A stretch of DNA of 64,000 bases from Spirochaetia bacterium (lineage in GTDB: Bacteria; Spirochaetota; Spirochaetia; DSM-2461), in contig OY764216.1 of the NCBI GenBank assembly GCA_963668315.1, forward strand, positions 4,096,001 through 4,160,000, given 5' to 3'. A model generated the notes under the pieces. That model did no database searches. It was not told the origin of the DNA and worked only from the letters and a program-made list of their open reading frames with translations. Within the stretch, counting starts at the first letter, position 1; every line of letters starts with the position of its first letter. Below, in pieces: positions 10,347 through 18,355 of the stretch. A program made the translations under genes and the position numbers.

Positions 10347-11513
10347 CTATTTCGTATTCAGTTTGATAAGGGTGACTTCGTCTTTCCGGGCTTCCTTGGA
10401 TTGCCTTTCGAACATGGTGTCGATGAAGCTCACCATCTCCTCGAGGGATTGATCCATAAGGACATTGATGTTGATGAATTCCAGGAGCTGTTCAAAGGAG
10501 TATTCGTTATTCATCTGTCTTTCCATAAAGATTCCGTTTGTAGAGATGATTACCTGCTCGCCCTTCTCCAGAGTCATTTCCTCGTCCTCCCACCGGCTTT
10601 CCCCGTTGACTCCCAGGGGAAGGGATTTTTCCCCGTGGAGATAAACATGCTGATGGCTGAGACGCAGCAGGGGCGGCTGGCCGGCCTGGGCGAAACGGAG
10701 AGAGCGGTCCTCATGGTTATAGAACAGAACGGTAAAGGAGACAAAGGAGCCTTCGGGAAGGAAACCCGGCTTTGAGAGATGCCGGTTCAGGGAATCGAGG
10801 ATTCGGGAGGGTGAGGTAAAACTTTCCATACGGGGGAGCAGCTCCCCATGGATCAGTCCTTTCAGGAAAAGGGAGATAAACGCCGAAGTCAGTCCCATCC
10901 CGGCCACATCTCCCAGGAGCAGAAGAAGGCTGTGATCATCGGGTCTCAGAATATCCCAGTAATCACCGCCGAAGGGATAATCCGGCCCGTCGCTATGAAA
11001 AAGCTCCAGCCTGCATCCGGGAACCTGAGGAAGGTCGGGATGCCTGAAAAGCTTCTGATAACTCAGGGCGCTTTCCCTTTCCGCCTCCAGAAGCTTCCGG
11101 GTTTTGCGGCTCTCCACCCGGTGGTGGTAGAGCTCCAGTCCCCTTTCCAGATGAATCAGCAGATTCTGTTTCTCCCAGGGCTTATCTATGCAACCGAAAA
11201 GATTATGTCTAAGGAAATCGGGGATATCCGAAGAAGAGACAAAACCGGATAATACGATGGTAACAATGTCGGGATGGAGGGTATTCACATGCTCCAGCAG
11301 CTCGTTTCCCCTCATTTCCGGCATCTTCAGATCGGTGATGACAAGAGAGACATCTTCCCTTTTGAGGATCTCCAGAGCCTCCGAAGCCCTTGAGGCTTTC
11401 ATCAGTCTGTGGTTGCCCCTGATAACCCATTCGTGCAGCTGCCTGGCAAGAGCCGAGATGACTTCCGGCTCGTCGTCTACGAGAAGAATGATATCTCCCT
11501 TCCCCTTTGTCAT
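10347..11513 (-). CDS. Response regulator receiver fused to SpoIIE/PP2C-type (RsbU-like) domain
   Basis: REC motifs LLVDDE, TDLKMP, KPW. SpoIIE motifs GGDYWD, GDVAGMG, AGQPP. ATGA overlap with the upstream kinase stop. Confidence 0.88.
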   Translation of the reverse strand: MTKGKGDIILLVDDEPEVISALARQLHEWVIRGNHRLMKASRASEALEILKREDVSLVITDLKMPEMRGNELLEHVNTLHPDIVTIVLSGFVSSSDIPDFLRHNLFGCIDKPWEKQNLLIHLERGLELYHHRVESRKTRKLLEAERESALSYQKLFRHPDLPQVPGCRLELFHSDGPDYPFGGDYWDILRPDDHSLLLLLGDVAGMGLTSAFISLFLKGLIHGELLPRMESFTSPSRILDSLNRHLSKPGFLPEGSFVSFTVLFYNHEDRSLRFAQAGQPPLLRLSHQHVYLHGEKSLPLGVNGESRWEDEEMTLEKGEQVIISTNGIFMERQMNNEYSFEQLLEFININVLMDQSLEEMVSFIDTMFERQSKEARKDEVTLIKLNTK

Positions 11514-12916
11514 GAATCCTCCCCGGTCAGAGGGAAGTGCAGCTGAAAGCAACTGCCTTCTCCCCGGATGTCTTTGATATTAATGCTGCCGTTATGAGCC
11601 TCCATGACTCCGTGAGCGACAGCCAGTCCCAGTCCAATTCCCTGATCCACCTCTTTGGTAGAATAGAAGGGCTCGAAAATTCTTTCCCGGTGTTCCCTGG
11701 GTATGCCGGCACCGGTATCTTCGATTTCGATTATGACTTCCGAACGCTTCTTATCCAGGAATCCCCTTATCGTCAGGAGCCCCCTGTCCTTAATAGCATC
11801 GGCAGCATTCAGAAACAGATTGACGAAGACCTGCTGCAGTTTATGCTCCGTCCCTTCGATCGGGGGCAGAGATTCAATCTCCCTTATCACCTCGATACGG
11901 TTATTCAGTTTGTTCCCGACAATATGGAGGGCATCTTCAATGATATCCGGTAGATTCAGCGGCTTCTTTGTATCATGGCTCTCCCGGGCGAAAGACTGGA
12001 GTCCCTTGACGATTTTGTTAATCCGCCTGGCCCCTTTCTGGGAGTCTTCCAGAAGACTTCCGATATCCCCCCGGATAAAGTCAAAATCCTCCTCCTCCTT
12101 CTTCTTCTCCAGAAGGCCCAGAAGTTCTTCTCTCTTTTGCCCGTTCTTTTCGGAAATTATCCTTTCAGAAAGTTCCAGAAGAGATTGATAGACATGAAAA
12201 TACTCTGATAGAGTCTGGGTATTGCTCAACAGGAATCCAGTGGGGTTGTTGATCTCATGGGCGACACCGGCGGCCAGCTCTCCGAGGGAAGCCATTCTTT
12301 CCTGGCGTATCATCCGTGTCTGGGCCCTGCTTAATTGCCCCAATGACTCTTCCAGCTCATGGGTCCTCTCTTCCACCTTTCTTTCCAGTAGATTGGAATA
12401 TTCCCTCAGCTGCCGGTCTTTCAGTTCGGCGAAATAGGCATTGCCGATAATGCCGCAGATGGTCCTGAGCAGCTCCAGCTCCCTCTGCTTCCATTGGCGG
12501 ATCCGGATATTCTCATCGAATCCGATAAACCCTTTTATAAAGCGCTCCATAATAAGAGGATACACCAGGAGGGACTTGATCTCCTGAGGTTCCAGTATCG
12601 CCCTCAGGTCCTCCGGCAGCGTAGAGATATTCTCCGAGAAGACCCGCCCTTCCCTTTCCATCAGCCTCCGCCAGGAGGGAATGGCACCGTAGGGTATGAA
12701 CTGCAGTTCATCAATCTGGGGACCGATTCCCCGGTTGCACCATTCATAGGTATTGCTGGTGGTCAATCCATCGGGGGCATCCAGAAATATATAAACCCGG
12801 CTGACATCGAGATGATTCCCGATCAGGGAAAGCACCGAGTTGATTCTCCCGTCAAAATCGGTCTGCCTGTTGATAAGATTCAGGGCTATCTCAGACAGGA
12901 TTTCAAGGTCTCTCAT
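11510..12916 (-). CDS. Cytoplasmic GAF-domain sensor histidine kinase (NtrB-like)
   Basis: GAF (TYEWC...GFIGFD), H-box AHEINNP, N box, G boxes DTGAG and GIGLGL. Confidence 0.92.
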   Translation of the reverse strand: MRDLEILSEIALNLINRQTDFDGRINSVLSLIGNHLDVSRVYIFLDAPDGLTTSNTYEWCNRGIGPQIDELQFIPYGAIPSWRRLMEREGRVFSENISTLPEDLRAILEPQEIKSLLVYPLIMERFIKGFIGFDENIRIRQWKQRELELLRTICGIIGNAYFAELKDRQLREYSNLLERKVEERTHELEESLGQLSRAQTRMIRQERMASLGELAAGVAHEINNPTGFLLSNTQTLSEYFHVYQSLLELSERIISEKNGQKREELLGLLEKKKEEEDFDFIRGDIGSLLEDSQKGARRINKIVKGLQSFARESHDTKKPLNLPDIIEDALHIVGNKLNNRIEVIREIESLPPIEGTEHKLQQVFVNLFLNAADAIKDRGLLTIRGFLDKKRSEVIIEIEDTGAGIPREHRERIFEPFYSTKEVDQGIGLGLAVAHGVMEAHNGSINIKDIRGEGSCFQLHFPLTGEDS

Positions 12917-14175
12917 TCTTCCCCTCCCGAATGTTCCCTGCAGACGGGAAAGGATAATCGGAAAAGAGAGCCCTTCTCCTTTTCCGATTCCACCTCTATT
13001 TTCCCGTCATGGCTGTTGATAATATCCAGGGAGATGGATAAGCCCAGGCCGGTTCCCGCTTCCTTCGTCGTAAAGAAGGGTTCAAAAATCTTCCTCTGAG
13101 TATCCCCGTCCATACCGCAGCCGTTGTCGGCGATCTCCAGAAAAACCTCTTCGTTTCTTTCGTAACTCACCAGGGAAATCCGCCCCTTTTCCCTGTCCAC
13201 GGCATCGGTCGCATTAATAAGAAGATTGACGATGACCTGCTCTATCTGATTTTTATTCCCCCGGATGGGGGGGAGGAAACCGGGCTTTGTCTCGATTGAG
13301 CCGATGTATTTCAACCGGTTGCCGACAAGCTGAAGGGCATCCTCCATAACATCGTTCAGGTCGACTTCCTCCTTTCTCTCCTCATCCTTCCGCGCATAGG
13401 TTTTAAGCCCTTTGACGATCTGGGCTATCTTCTCTATTCCCTGGCGGTAATCCCTTATCAGGGACTGCAGATCGTTCCGGATGAAATCGAAATCCACTTC
13501 CCTCTCCATCTCCTCAATCCGGCGGAGGATCTCTCTCCTCTGCTCCTCCCCGTCAGAAGGGACTGTCAGAGAGAGCCTGTAGAGATTAATCAGCCTGTCA
13601 TAGGAGGATATGTAATCGGCCAGGGTCTGGGAATTCCCGTATAAATAGCCGGCGGGATTGTTGATTTCATGGGCGATACCCGCGGCCAGCTGTCCCAGAG
13701 AAGCCAGACGCTCCTGTTGTATGATCTGCTTCTGAGCCCTGGACAGCTCAGAGAGAGACCGTTCCAGCTCTTCGGTTCTCCGGGCGACCTGTTCCTCCAG
13801 GGAGCGCTGCCGGCTTTTCAGAGTTTCCGTCATCCGGTTGAAAATCTCACCCATGAGTTGAAACTCCCGGGGCTTGTGAATGGACAGTTTGACGGATAAA
13901 TCGCCCCGGGCCACTCTTGCTGCCGCCCGGGACAGTTCCTTAAGGGGCTTCCTGAACCAGGAATACACCACGGAAGTGATCAATACGGAATATATGATAA
14001 AGGATGAGGACAAAAGCCCCAGAAGAAACAGCTTCCGCTGAAAAGTCACGCCGCTGCCCTTGAGGAGATTCTGAAGGAGAAGAGCCGAAAAAAACAGGAT
14101 AACCAGCGCGGAAAGACATAATAACAGAATCATCCGGCGGCTCAGTTTATCGTTCATTCCTCTTCTCATGTACAA
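12913..14175 (-). CDS. Membrane HAMP-domain histidine kinase (NtrB-like)
   Basis: Two TM helices, HAMP, AHEINNP, DNGCG, GTGLGL. Confidence 0.92.
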   Translation of the reverse strand: MYMRRGMNDKLSRRMILLLCLSALVILFFSALLLQNLLKGSGVTFQRKLFLLGLLSSSFIIYSVLITSVVYSWFRKPLKELSRAAARVARGDLSVKLSIHKPREFQLMGEIFNRMTETLKSRQRSLEEQVARRTEELERSLSELSRAQKQIIQQERLASLGQLAAGIAHEINNPAGYLYGNSQTLADYISSYDRLINLYRLSLTVPSDGEEQRREILRRIEEMEREVDFDFIRNDLQSLIRDYRQGIEKIAQIVKGLKTYARKDEERKEEVDLNDVMEDALQLVGNRLKYIGSIETKPGFLPPIRGNKNQIEQVIVNLLINATDAVDREKGRISLVSYERNEEVFLEIADNGCGMDGDTQRKIFEPFFTTKEAGTGLGLSISLDIINSHDGKIEVESEKEKGSLFRLSFPVCREHSGGEE

Positions 14176-14343: not shown

Positions 14344-15279
14344 TCAGCCGGCCGATTTCTCGTAAAATTCACCGTAACAGACCGGTTCATTCGATTCCAT
14401 GAGGGCCATTGCCTTGCGGGGGTGCTGATTCAGGATTCCCGAAACGGCATAGGGGATCCGGTATCCCCACTTGAGCCGGTTCATCAGGGGTTCGATTTCC
14501 CTCTGGATGACATTAAAAACGGGTATCAGATTGCCCGAGGAGGACCCGATTTTGGAAAGGAGCAGTTCCAGAGGCGTATTGCCTGCCCCCCGCCCCATTC
14601 CGAAATAGGAGCCGTCGATATATTCGGCGCCCGCTTCGACGGCGGCAAGACTGTTTGCCAGGGCCATCTGCGTGTTGTTATGTCCGTGGAATCCCAGTTT
14701 TTTTTCGGGACAGAACGCTCTGTACTCCTCCAGACGGCTCTGGATATCCCGGGGAAGAAAGGAACCGAAGGTGTCGGAAAGGTATATCCCCGACGCGCTG
14801 GAACGGTTCACCTTTTCCAGACACGCCCTCACCTCTTCGGGAGTGCCGGTGGAAACAGCCATGATGTTGATGAATGTCTCATATCCGAGATCCACCAGAT
14901 AATCGGATAACTCCAGGGCCTCATCGATCTGATGGACATAACAGGCCAGACGGAAGATATCGATGAAGGAATCCCTGCGGGGGATAAAGTCCTCCTTATA
15001 GACTCTCCCTATATCACCCATGACGGCGATTTTCATATTTCCCTTTCCCCGGACGGCGACTTTCCGGATCAGCTCCTCGGGGCAGAACTTCCAGGGTCCG
15101 TGCTCTTCGGGATTGAAAACTTTCGGACTGACCCGGTAGCCCATCTCCATGACTGATATCCCGGCGGCCTTATTGGCTTCAAATAAGCCGGTGACCGTCT
15201 CCAGAGAGAATTCCCAGTTGTTCATCAATCCCCCGTCCCGCACGGTGCAATCGATCAGTTTCGGTTCCATAGTACTCAT
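14344..15279 (-). CDS. DRE-TIM metallolyase, 4-hydroxy-2-oxovalerate aldolase-like (HMGL-like), function unknown
   Basis: DCTVRDGG, DTFGS, GFHGHNN (metal-binding HxH) and GMGRGAGN motifs. 311 aa with no regulatory domain. AAGGAG SD. Confidence 0.88.
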   Translation of the reverse strand: MSTMEPKLIDCTVRDGGLMNNWEFSLETVTGLFEANKAAGISVMEMGYRVSPKVFNPEEHGPWKFCPEELIRKVAVRGKGNMKIAVMGDIGRVYKEDFIPRRDSFIDIFRLACYVHQIDEALELSDYLVDLGYETFINIMAVSTGTPEEVRACLEKVNRSSASGIYLSDTFGSFLPRDIQSRLEEYRAFCPEKKLGFHGHNNTQMALANSLAAVEAGAEYIDGSYFGMGRGAGNTPLELLLSKIGSSSGNLIPVFNVIQREIEPLMNRLKWGYRIPYAVSGILNQHPRKAMALMESNEPVCYGEFYEKSAG

Positions 15280-15307
15280 ATCTCAACTCCTTGAATCGGC
15301 TGAAGGC

Positions 15308-15345
15308 AAAAAAAAGGACCCGGGATTTTGTTGATCCCGGGTCCT
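15308..15345 (-). terminator. Attenuator terminator in the aldolase 5' leader
   Basis: Minus strand GGACCCGGGAT-CAACAAA-ATCCCGGGTCC followed by 8 T, ending ~28 nt upstream of the aldolase ATG. Confidence 0.88.
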
Positions 15346-15364
15346 GTAATTACCGTCTGGTAAA

Positions 15365-15466
15365 TTACCGCATTCTCTGCGGCGTACAACGACCCGGGCA
15401 TCTAAAGTAAAAATAGAAACCAAAAAAATAGGAGAAAGTAAAATTTCTTGCCAGGGTCATATTCAT
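15365..15466 (-). CDS. Phe/Tyr-rich attenuator leader peptide MNMTLARNFTFSYFFGFYFYFRCPGRCTPQRMR
   Basis: 33 codons translated by hand. 7 Phe + 3 Tyr in codons 9-21. Contains antiterminator segment CCCGGGTC complementary to the terminator 5' arm. Confidence 0.8.
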   Translation of the reverse strand: MNMTLARNFTFSYFFGFYFYFRCPGRCTPQRMR

Positions 15467-15475
15467 ATTAACAAC

Positions 15476-15504
15476 TCTTTACCAAGGATTCCCTTTTTTG
15501 TCAA
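15476..15504 (-). promoter_or_regulatory. Putative sigma70 promoter of the leader-aldolase transcript
   Basis: TTGACA (15504-15499), 17-nt spacer, TAAAGA (imperfect -10). Confidence 0.5.
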
Positions 15505-16396: not shown

Positions 16397-18280
16397 TCAT
16401 TCGCCCGCCAGCACTTCTCCGGCGGCTTTCTCTCCGGCGATCCGTCCCGTGTTCATGGCGAAGCTCATGGTGAGGCCTTCCAGATCGGGATAGGAGTTGT
16501 CATACATTCCGCCCGCGTCGGCGCCTACGGCAAAAAGGCCGGGAATGACAACCCCGTCTTCCTTCATGGCCTGGGCGTCTTCGTTAATCCGGACTCCCCC
16601 GATGGAACCGTAGGAGGAACCGCTGACCTTAACAGCGTAGAAGGGCCCCTGTGATACGGGATACACCAGATAATCGGGATTTTTGTAGAACATATCGTCC
16701 TTACCGGATCTGACAGCCTCATTATACCGGGCGGCGGATTTTTCCAGTTTTTCCGCCTTCATGCCGGTGGCTTTCGCCAGATCAGCCAGGGTATCTCCTT
16801 TGAAAAGGACATTTCCCTGATCCATCAGCTTATTGATATCATCCTGGAGAGAGGGAAGAGGACCAATAACGATATTCACGTCGTTTCCTCCCTGGGGATG
16901 CATCAGTCCGGAACCGTTCATCTGATAGGCGCCGGTCAGGTTGAGTCCTTCGGTCATGAAGGTATCCACGCTTGCCTGGTCGAAGACGGCGAAGTACTCA
17001 CCGCCGGCGGCAAAGGTGGCGTTGCCCCAGATAACATTATCGTAGGCGACCCCTTCGTCCACAAACCGGGTTCCCTCTTTGTTTACCCAGAAGAGGGGGG
17101 CGTCCTTGACCTGGGCCACGGCGCTGTCCCCGTAACGGTTGAAGATGGTCTTGGAGCCGCTGATATCGCCCAGATGGATCTGAATGGCGTGGTTGCCCAG
17201 CTTGTCCGCTCCTGCTTTCCAGGCCATTTTCACCCCTTCTCCCTGGTTTCCCAGGCCGAAGTAGTTGTAGTGATTGATCTGGCTGTTCTCTTTCATCATT
17301 TCGGTGTTTCCCCCGAAACCGCCCGAAGCCAGGATCACTTTCTTGGCCCGCACGGTCAGGATGCCTCCGTCCTCTTTCTCGGCGATGACACCGGCAATCT
17401 GTCCCTCTTCATCCTTCAGAAGGTCGACGGCCCGGGTGTTCAGCCGGAGGTCGAGACCATACTCATTCTGCATTCTTTCATAAAGGGCGGGGAAATCTTC
17501 CTTGGAGTTATCCCACATATGGTAGGTTTTGGGATAATCCAGATGGGCTTTCTGGTCGATACCCAATCCCAGATGCAGGCGGATCCCGTTCTCCATCAGC
17601 CAGTCGATGGTGGAGGAGGATTTATCCAGCACGGCTCTCATCAGGGGGCCGTTGGATCGGTAATGGTTGTACTCGATAAGGTGCTTGAAAATTTCTTCCG
17701 TGGTGACATGGTAGCCGGCGGCTTTCTGCAGGGAAGATTCGGTGGCCAGAAGTCCCATTCCGGTCGTGGCCAGACCTCCCACCTTATCCAGCTTTTCCAG
17801 AACGGTGACTTTAACCCCGGCCTGGGCGGCGGAAAGGGAGGCTCCTGTTCCCGACGTACCCGCACCCACGATGACCACATCGGTGGAAATCTCTTCATCC
17901 ACACCGGAAGCGACCTCTTGGGGGATCATGCTATCCGGATCGATGCCCGCCTTTGCCAGAGCGTCGGAAGCGGCATCCAGGATGGCTTCGCTTGTCTTGC
18001 TGGCACCGGATACCGCATCGATTTTTGTGCTCTGCCGTTCCAGTATCGCCTTCTGCAGTTTGGTCACGGCCAGAGAACCGATTCCCTCCGTTTCATGGGG
18101 GGCCGATATCTGCACATCCTTGATGACTCCCTTCGTATCGATGTCCAGGGTGACGGAGAGATTCCCCCCCATCCCTTCCGCTTCGGACGTATAGGTGCCC
18201 GGTTTCACCTTGTTTCCCCCGCAGGAAAACAGGGCCAGGGCCAACACTAAAATGGCCGTGATTGTTAACACTCTTTTCAT
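16397..18280 (-). CDS. Lipoprotein flavocytochrome c-type FAD oxidoreductase with N-terminal FMN-binding domain
   Basis: Lipobox LFSC. FMN-bind domain with DAVSGASKTS flavinylation motif. GAGTSG FAD-binding motif, ASGGFG, GGVRIN. Confidence 0.9.
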   Translation of the reverse strand: MKRVLTITAILVLALALFSCGGNKVKPGTYTSEAEGMGGNLSVTLDIDTKGVIKDVQISAPHETEGIGSLAVTKLQKAILERQSTKIDAVSGASKTSEAILDAASDALAKAGIDPDSMIPQEVASGVDEEISTDVVIVGAGTSGTGASLSAAQAGVKVTVLEKLDKVGGLATTGMGLLATESSLQKAAGYHVTTEEIFKHLIEYNHYRSNGPLMRAVLDKSSSTIDWLMENGIRLHLGLGIDQKAHLDYPKTYHMWDNSKEDFPALYERMQNEYGLDLRLNTRAVDLLKDEEGQIAGVIAEKEDGGILTVRAKKVILASGGFGGNTEMMKENSQINHYNYFGLGNQGEGVKMAWKAGADKLGNHAIQIHLGDISGSKTIFNRYGDSAVAQVKDAPLFWVNKEGTRFVDEGVAYDNVIWGNATFAAGGEYFAVFDQASVDTFMTEGLNLTGAYQMNGSGLMHPQGGNDVNIVIGPLPSLQDDINKLMDQGNVLFKGDTLADLAKATGMKAEKLEKSAARYNEAVRSGKDDMFYKNPDYLVYPVSQGPFYAVKVSGSSYGSIGGVRINEDAQAMKEDGVVIPGLFAVGADAGGMYDNSYPDLEGLTMSFAMNTGRIAGEKAAGEVLAGE

Positions 18281-18294
18281 AAGATCTCCTTTTA

Positions 18295-18355
18295 TGACCA
18301 TGGTCACTGACCGCGGTCACCGAAGCATTCTACAGAGACATCTTTTAATTGTCAA
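18295..18355 (-). promoter_or_regulatory. Sigma70 promoter plus two tandem palindromic operators
   Basis: TTGACA (18355-18350), 17-nt spacer, TAGAAT (18332-18327). Palindromes TGACCATGGTCA (18295-18306) and TGACCGCGGTCA (18308-18319). Confidence 0.8.

Follow-up and report, generated by a model that had tools for sequence, protein, structure and literature searches.

A stand-alone DRE-TIM enzyme of the RDGGL family

The minus strand of the window, the 64,000-nucleotide stretch of the source genome (G000) analysed here, carries a gene for a 311-residue DRE-TIM metallo-aldolase (14344 to 15279). We refer to its family as the RDGGL family and treat the protein as a candidate DAHP-forming enzyme. 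It matches the Pfam HMGL-like model (PF00682) with 98.2 bits against a threshold of 29 and contains the motifs R14-D15-G16-G17-L18 and H198-x-H200, both invariant or nearly so across 34 homologues. With its HMGL-like barrel, the R-D pair in the first helix, a conserved glutamate and HxH metal ligands, the protein belongs to the DRE-TIM metallolyase superfamily; R14, D15, E45, H198 and H200 are invariant in the 34 aligned homologue sequences. The earlier note, made from the letters alone, had described a stand-alone 311-residue DRE-TIM enzyme with RDGG and HxH, and the open reading frame, the 98-bit HMGL-like match and the motifs agree with that description. R92, R110 and H286 are also invariant in the 34 sequences, N284 is nearly so, and a C-terminal N-x-H-P is conserved among them. 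R92, R110, N284 and H286 may be considered candidates for phosphate binding and acid-base roles.

The gene is flanked by an SBP_bac_3 binding protein and two histidine kinases, in line with the earlier statement that it has no catabolic neighbours. The kinase genes lie downstream on the same strand together with a response-regulator phosphatase-like gene (10347 to 14175), a context that is not common to the orthologues. On the other side, a 636-residue predicted lipoprotein of the FMN-binding and flavocytochrome c type (16397 to 18307, minus strand), read from sequence only, adjoins a TetR-like gene.

The closest characterised relative is 4-hydroxy-2-oxovalerate aldolase (HOA; DmpG/BphI/HsaF; TIGR03217, NF006049; PDB 1nvm, 4jn6, 4lrs), which shares the DRE-TIM barrel, the R-D pair and HxH. 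Pyruvate-enolate aldol chemistry is probably common to both, and DAHP falls in the class of 4-hydroxy-2-oxo acids on which HOA acts. HOA models are the top family matches of the protein, though far under their cut-offs (110 of 286 bits for TIGR03217 and 125 of 229 for NF006049), and four further RDGGL-family members likewise score below them. In HOA, the histidine after RDG(S/M) has a catalytic role; the RDGSH of HOA aligns to RDGGL here, with leucine in place of the histidine. Pfam reports no DmpG communication domain (PF07836, DmpG_comm) in the protein. The partner acylating acetaldehyde dehydrogenase (TIGR03215), which the earlier note had described as lacking next to the gene, is absent from the whole source genome (0 of 1; 96.95% complete). 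Regulation and context, described below, also differ from HOA in being biosynthetic.

These differences bear on a catabolic reading, in which the enzyme is an HOA-type aldolase that splits a 4-hydroxy-2-oxo acid into pyruvate and an aldehyde, or another chorismate-branch enzyme, and its aromatic links are local recruitments. That HOA models rank first favours this reading, as does a 42.7%-identical member on a Priestia plasmid that sits two genes from a meta-cleavage cluster without an annotated HOA. We nevertheless consider it highly unlikely: the scores are far under the HOA cut-offs, the RDGSH histidine is a leucine, DmpG_comm and the acylating dehydrogenase are missing from protein and genome, respectively, and an attenuator that is read through under starvation is what one would expect of a biosynthetic rather than a degradative gene.

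An acyl-CoA-condensing, LeuA-like enzyme, or some other unrecognised step of aromatic amino acid supply, seems very improbable. Such enzymes belong to the same superfamily, and the conserved N-x-H-P could contribute active-site residues. However, homocitrate, citramalate and isopropylmalate synthase models give only weak matches (at most 65 bits against cut-offs above 400), which place the protein outside those families; the glutamine of RDGxQ, the motif of acyl-CoA-condensing DRE-TIM enzymes, is absent; and no leuBCD-like gene recurs among the neighbour clusters of 80 family loci.

The protein has no match to PF00793 or PF01474, the class I and class II DAHP synthase models, and PF00682 is its sole Pfam match. 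Judged by these profiles and motifs, the enzyme is neither HOA nor a member of either DAHP synthase class. Its top PDB match is 3dxi, a "putative aldolase" (E 5e-41).

An aromatic leader-peptide attenuator precedes the gene

Directly upstream, on the same strand, a 33-residue leader peptide (15365 to 15466) contains seven Phe and three Tyr codons, all within codons 9 to 21 (about 15404 to 15442). Segment 1 of the attenuator (15449 to 15460, leader codons 3 to 7) pairs with segment 2 (15385 to 15402) in naked RNA. Segment 2, which includes one of three CCCGGG boxes in the leader region (15393 to 15398), pairs with segment 3 to form the antiterminator if a ribosome is held up within the aromatic codons. 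Segments 3 and 4 form an intrinsic terminator followed by a U-tract (15308 to 15345; stem 15315 to 15345, 12 bp with 8 G-C), 29 nt from the start codon. By eye, although not reported by the promoter scan, we read a putative sigma-70 promoter (TTGACA, 17 nt, TAAAGA) at 15476 to 15504 of the minus strand.

The leader region folds with a z score of -4.54, equalled in none of 200 shuffles. Among 220 terminator-like sites genome-wide, only this one has nine of 12 Phe/Tyr codons in an upstream short open reading frame; the runner-up has six. A search of 41 genomes found orthologues at 60-70% identity in four relatives from two families, and the leader, antiterminator and terminator are kept before all four. 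The same leader and terminator are absent from the six homologues at about 40% identity that were read. TTGACA occurs at similar spacing upstream of all five leaders, again by eye. A consensus fold of the five recovers the 1:2 and 3:4 pairings, with two-sided change in 5 of 31 consensus pairs, and no Rfam family matches the five leader loci at gathering score.

We also simulated the position of the ribosome. When a ribosome is placed on a middle aromatic codon and the transcript is truncated ahead of the final terminator arm, the 2:3 antiterminator forms in 5/5 genomes; a ribosome placed at the stop codon instead gives the terminator in 5/5. Under simulated ribosome cover, the antiterminator reaches -31 to -35 kcal/mol and the terminator -23 to -27 kcal/mol across the five genomes. 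On the full-length transcript, the terminator wins in four of five even with a stall, which means that the switch has to be kinetic, as such switches usually are.

Ribosome-mediated attenuators of the pheA, trp, leu and thr type combine a leader peptide rich in control codons with alternative hairpins. The present element has the same control-codon run and the same alternative 1:2, 2:3 and 3:4 hairpins, and differs in its mixed Phe/Tyr(/Trp) run, in preceding an uncharacterised gene and in occurring in spirochaete-like genomes. Control codons, mutually exclusive antiterminator and terminator, U-tract and conservation are found in all five genomes, and attenuation presumably operates in vivo. 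The earlier note had placed the gene directly behind a Phe/Tyr attenuator. Its position, leader and terminator stand, with conservation in 5/5, and only the label needs refining: four of the five leaders contain one Trp codon (the window's own has none), so the sensor is better called aromatic. The Trp codons point to the common aromatic pathway as the likely target of control.

Leaders in G000 seem to mark biosynthetic genes, because leuA-like and asd-like genes (names read from sequence) carry matching ones: an Ile/Leu/Val-rich leader-peptide attenuator before the former (C1 near 872663, minus strand) and a Thr-rich one before the latter (C1 near 465925, minus strand). A short open reading frame with Ile/Thr and Lys runs and a terminator before a lysyl-tRNA synthetase-like gene (C1 near 3906642, plus strand) may be a leader or chance.

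The source genome retains two canonical DAHP synthases

According to the earlier note, the enzyme may replace or supplement AroF/G/H. The search of the source genome for class I and II DAHP synthases that it had called for returned two class I enzymes and no class II: a class I-beta domain fused to prephenate dehydratase (631 residues; L001:580-2475, C1:5129765-5131660) and a class I-alpha enzyme. G000 also has AroB and AroA, with no DHQ synthase II. Replacement of AroF/G/H in G000 is therefore rejected. Related spirochaete carriers resemble it, with a class I DAHP synthase in 10/10 and two in nine of them; frames of 630-660 residues resembling the class I-beta fusion occur in most related carriers. 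Neither canonical synthase of G000 is preceded by an aromatic leader.

The family is widespread and in places clusters with aromatic genes

The earlier note called the enzyme an orphan, a label that does not survive: the RDGGL family comprises at least 2003 proteins at E<=1e-40. The closest homologues carry Spirochaetales names, and the best 80 of 599 genome loci come from Bacteroidales, Desulfobacterota, Nitrospirae, Omnitrophota, Fibrobacter, Bacillaceae, Clostridia, Campylobacterota and Verrucomicrobiota. The motif reads RDGGL in 120/120 family matches. A 583-residue open reading frame at locus L102 looked like a fusion and proved to be an early start call only, and a second DRE-TIM protein at L078, considered as HOA, is an HMG-CoA lyase. 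In a protein tree of 45 chosen rows, which included four full-length leader-bearing proteins, the latter form a long-branch subclade within the RDGGL clade. Their function could thus differ from that of the rest of the family.

Canonical aro/phe/tyr genes neighbour 10 of 130 family loci and none of 129 control loci. The Fisher p value of 0.0016 overstates this enrichment, because L100 and L297 are duplicates, L294 and L295 represent one event, the L098 neighbour is 5.9 kb away and the control loci hold less DNA (0.70 against 1.16 Mb). The arrangements are varied and come from unrelated phyla. With gene names confirmed by NCBIfam, they include aroB-eda-GENE (L036), eda-GENE-pheA-hisC-aroF (L094, with hisC read from sequence), tyrA-aroA-GENE (L100, the same as L297), aroB divergent from GENE-eda (L101), tal-DAHPS II-GENE (L103) and PDT-GENE (L143); the single event at L294 and L295 is aroF-GENE. 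Clustering with aro/phe/tyr genes, which the earlier note had proposed to look for, is thus present and extends to aroB, aroA, aroF, DAHPS II, pheA, tyrA and an AroQ-like gene, although most family loci have no aro neighbour. A tmRNA gene lies directly downstream of the family gene in two Fibrobacterota genomes, G105 and G099 (L196:4623-4978 and L197:4661-5016).

Two further neighbours recur. In 22 of the best 80 loci, all Bacteroidales, the gene immediately upstream is AroQ/PchB-like. Having an AroQ-fold gene as neighbour is reminiscent of the chorismate mutase-DAHPS complex of Mycobacterium tuberculosis (PMC4281200). The top score of the Bacteroidales protein is to isochorismate lyase, below cut-off, which counts in favour of the catabolic or other-branch reading. 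The second neighbour, an Eda-like gene, is adjacent in 17 of the best 80 loci and in 20 of 130 family loci overall. PTGG, the motif in KDPG aldolase alignments, is absent from all 17 adjacent Eda-like proteins; nine have AVGG, whose valine presumably marks KDPGal aldolase.

These Eda-like proteins suggest a different division of labour, in which DAHP is the product of the KDPGal-aldolase-like neighbour and the role of the DRE-TIM enzyme is to provide the donor, for instance by decarboxylating oxaloacetate. Besides the motif counts (no PTGG in 17/17, AVGG in nine), the same Eda subfamily occurs in Fibrobacter, and the consulted part of PMC2431125 reports a KDPGal aldolase variant that can make DAHP. 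Against this, the G000 leader controls the DRE-TIM gene alone, and G099 and G105 lack both a DAHP synthase and Eda, yet keep the family, AroB and AroA. We regard an Eda-based route as a distinctly improbable account of the family.

Aromatic regulation does not extend to the wider family. None of 110 other RDGGL-family loci has a convincing aromatic leader (13 passed a loose filter), and no T-box was found in 14 Bacillota family loci. This lack of aromatic regulation signals outside the spirochaete subclade counts against a DAHP role.

Some Fibrobacterota have the family and no DAHP synthase

To our knowledge, PEP-dependent synthases of class I and II and the archaeal-type AroA'/AroB' bypass are the only known ways into the shikimate pathway. 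We examined 50 carrier genomes from the best 80 loci, with DAHP synthase class assigned mostly by open reading frame length and score, and 45 of them keep a canonical enzyme. The exceptions are three Fibrobacter genomes, the metagenome-assembled genome (MAG) G043 and Schinkia G062. The last, with no PF00793 match, was dropped as a likely assembly gap, because 7/7 other genomes of its family have PF00793. Eight genomes with KdsA-sized or fragmentary PF00793 matches also appeared to have holes; seven have a class II enzyme, leaving only G043. Among 61 carriers, AroB is present in 59 and DHQ synthase II in three.

The association is clearest in Fibrobacterota, where we sampled 91 genomes, many of them MAGs and with kin that are not independent. 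Thirty-nine lack PF00793, and the same 39 lack a class II DAHP synthase. The family is present in 38 of these 39, compared with 28 of the 52 with PF00793. Subsets of the hole genomes keep AroB (5/5), AroC (4/4) and AroA (3/3), and in the Fibrobacter genome G173 aroE lies beside an aroK-aroB fusion. AroA', AroB' and NeuB were each found in 0/5 tested hole genomes. In a RecA tree of 30 of the 91 genomes, the holes fall in two lineages, a clade of 12 rows and the pair G099 and G105. The six nearest sampled relatives of this pair have a DAHP synthase and lack the family, as does another clade of five Fibrobacterota genomes. Eda is absent from G099 and G105 and present in the other three of the five tested hole genomes, where it could be the DAHP-forming enzyme instead. 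At L290 and L292 (Fibrobacterota G125 and G173), an Eda from the subfamily that neighbours the family gene elsewhere is unlinked to it; an open reading frame two genes away looks to us like MqnA, and the fragment has no NCBIfam match.

G043 has only KdsA, no class II enzyme, an aroB-eda-GENE cassette and a separate complete AroA'/AroB' operon. With only KdsA present and the AroA'/AroB' operon separate, its canonical AroB has no known source of DAHP; since the AroA'/AroB' route is complete, however, G043 does not need DAHP. Other genomes count against the association. The Fibrobacterota genome G091 has AroB and AroC and neither a DAHP synthase nor the family. All nine carriers among 110 scored Clostridia have PF00793, and the family is in 0/12 of those without it, mostly small genomes in a count that covers PF00793 and the family. 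A general anti-correlation of the family with DAHP synthase is thus rejected on the carriers, the spirochaetes and the Clostridia.

The profile against DAHP synthase absence proposed in the earlier note gives a mixed picture: 38 of 39 Fibrobacterota and G043 agree with it, and 45 of 50 carriers, G091 and the Clostridia do not. Replacement in particular fits two Fibrobacterota lineages and one further MAG, G043, and is wrong for G000 and for most carriers.

A proposed PEP-independent route to DAHP

The enzyme very likely has a role in aromatic amino acid synthesis. The role in Phe/Tyr synthesis suggested by the earlier note is upheld by the conserved attenuator, the aro clustering and the genomes without DAHP synthase, leaving aside replacement in G000. 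Because of the attenuator, the aro clustering and the presence of the family where the known first enzyme is missing, the family probably carries out the first step of the aromatic pathway by different chemistry. As the best single explanation, we lean towards a PEP-independent DAHP-forming aldolase that would use pyruvate or oxaloacetate with erythrose 4-phosphate. The wider proposal, that the RDGGL family is a natural PEP-independent DAHP synthase across many phyla and the sole shikimate entry in Fibrobacter and a second Fibrobacterota lineage, we regard as evenly balanced between right and wrong.

We infer the reaction, the donor and the metal chemistry from sequence relationships. By homology, a divalent metal on D15, H198 and H200 would stabilise the pyruvate enolate, or an enolate arising from oxaloacetate decarboxylation. 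The enolate would then add to the aldehyde of erythrose 4-phosphate to give DAHP, which AroB would remove irreversibly. With pyruvate as donor the aldol would be reversible, and AroB would have to pull; with oxaloacetate it would be irreversible and would avoid a futile cycle beside PEP-dependent synthases. In G000, the enzyme would join the two canonical DAHP synthases as a third isozyme, and of the three it alone has an aromatic leader: low charged tRNA-Phe/Tyr would stall the ribosome in the leader, the 2:3 antiterminator would form and the gene would be transcribed. For the two Fibrobacterota lineages, it may provide the sole way into the pathway. The product and pathway position proposed here are those of DAHP synthases I-alpha, I-beta and II (PF00793, PF01474), with which the enzyme has no Pfam homology; these use PEP, whereas DRE-TIM chemistry would imply pyruvate or oxaloacetate.

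There is a precedent for such a reaction. As the earlier note had stated, and the consulted part of PMC2431125 confirms, an engineered KDPGal aldolase forms DAHP: evolved DgoA was selected for this activity in DAHPS-deficient Escherichia coli. A route from pyruvate and erythrose 4-phosphate to DAHP thus works in vivo. Evolved DgoA is an engineered Schiff-base class I aldolase of another family, whereas the candidate here would be natural and metal-dependent.

Several observations count against a DAHP role: the carriers that keep canonical synthases, the Clostridia, G091 and the plasmid member linked to meta-cleavage. Moreover, a DAHP aldolase that works freely in both directions could set up a futile cycle with a PEP-dependent synthase. 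Some of these facts would suit an accessory enzyme of the shikimate pathway, one that works together with a canonical DAHP synthase, with Eda or with the AroQ-like protein and either salvages side products (dephosphorylated DAH, an incorrect epimer or KDPG-like adducts) or supplies a substrate. The family gene usually coexists with a class I-beta or II DAHP synthase and sometimes lies directly behind one, an Eda-like neighbour is present in 20/130 loci, and all nine Clostridia carriers have PF00793. An accessory role would leave unexplained what feeds AroB in the 38 family-bearing Fibrobacterota without a DAHP synthase, and why this gene alone in G000, and neither canonical synthase, has an aromatic leader. 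We consider it unlikely.

In its boldest form, the DAHP-forming proposal would have the enzyme use oxaloacetate in an irreversible decarboxylative aldol reaction, the adjacent Eda-like enzyme clear a KDPGal-type by-product (speculatively, one formed with GAP), the AroQ-like protein regulate the enzyme in Bacteroidales, and a sister clade, described below, provide the matching PEP-independent replacement for KdsA-type ulosonate synthases.

If true, the proposal would close a gap in the annotation of Fibrobacter, an important cellulose degrader of the rumen, and assign a function to at least 2000 proteins that now carry the label "aldolase catalytic domain-containing protein" or HOA. For metabolic engineering, it would mean a natural way into aromatics that spares PEP, which has so far come from directed evolution. 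In the literature searched, with subscription journals mostly outside it, there is no description of the RDGGL family or of a natural pyruvate-dependent DAHP synthase. In the parts of the GapMind 2026 paper (PMC13759103) consulted, the main text does not mention DAHP, aldolase or Fibrobacter, and six supplements do not mention aroG or Fibrobacter. A table in the consulted part of PMC9026213 lists 14 gut genomes missing AroG/AroB and names no substitute.

A sister clade in the presumed synthase position of Kdo-like loci

RDGGY proteins fall outside the RDGGL clade in the 45-row tree. This HOA-like clade, which we take to be CDD cd07944 and to include PDB 3dxi, shares DCT.RDGG, HxHxN and a C-terminal WG segment with the RDGGL family, and differs in its separate place in the tree, in identity (about 29% for plasmid members) and in its KdsB-like and HAD neighbours. 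On a Leisingera plasmid, a member with 29% identity belongs to a polysaccharide locus in which a KdsB-like cytidylyltransferase and a HAD hydrolase come next. All 80 related metagenome loci have RDGGY; a KdsB-like gene is present in 40 of the 80 (34 of the 52 with enough downstream DNA) and a HAD gene in 59. Neither neighbour was found in 110 RDGGL-family loci. A C-terminal extension is present in 78 of the 80 metagenome loci; in this clade (L204:6995-9997 and L210 to L289) it matches no NCBIfam family at E<=1e-20.

Kdo synthesis is laid out as synthase, phosphatase and CMP transferase. The RDGGY loci have the same layout, with the DRE-TIM protein in the position of the synthase. By analogy, this suggests that RDGGY enzymes condense a pyruvate unit with aldose phosphates; with erythrose 4-phosphate as the aldose, this would be the DAHP reaction. 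The clade, for which the literature searched gave no characterised enzyme, is a candidate PEP-independent 3-deoxy-ulosonate synthase in its own right. Another DRE-TIM subgroup, on Paraburkholderia and Mesorhizobium plasmids (L205 and L208), lies in SDR-aldolase-(aminotransferase)-HAD clusters that probably encode a small-molecule pathway.
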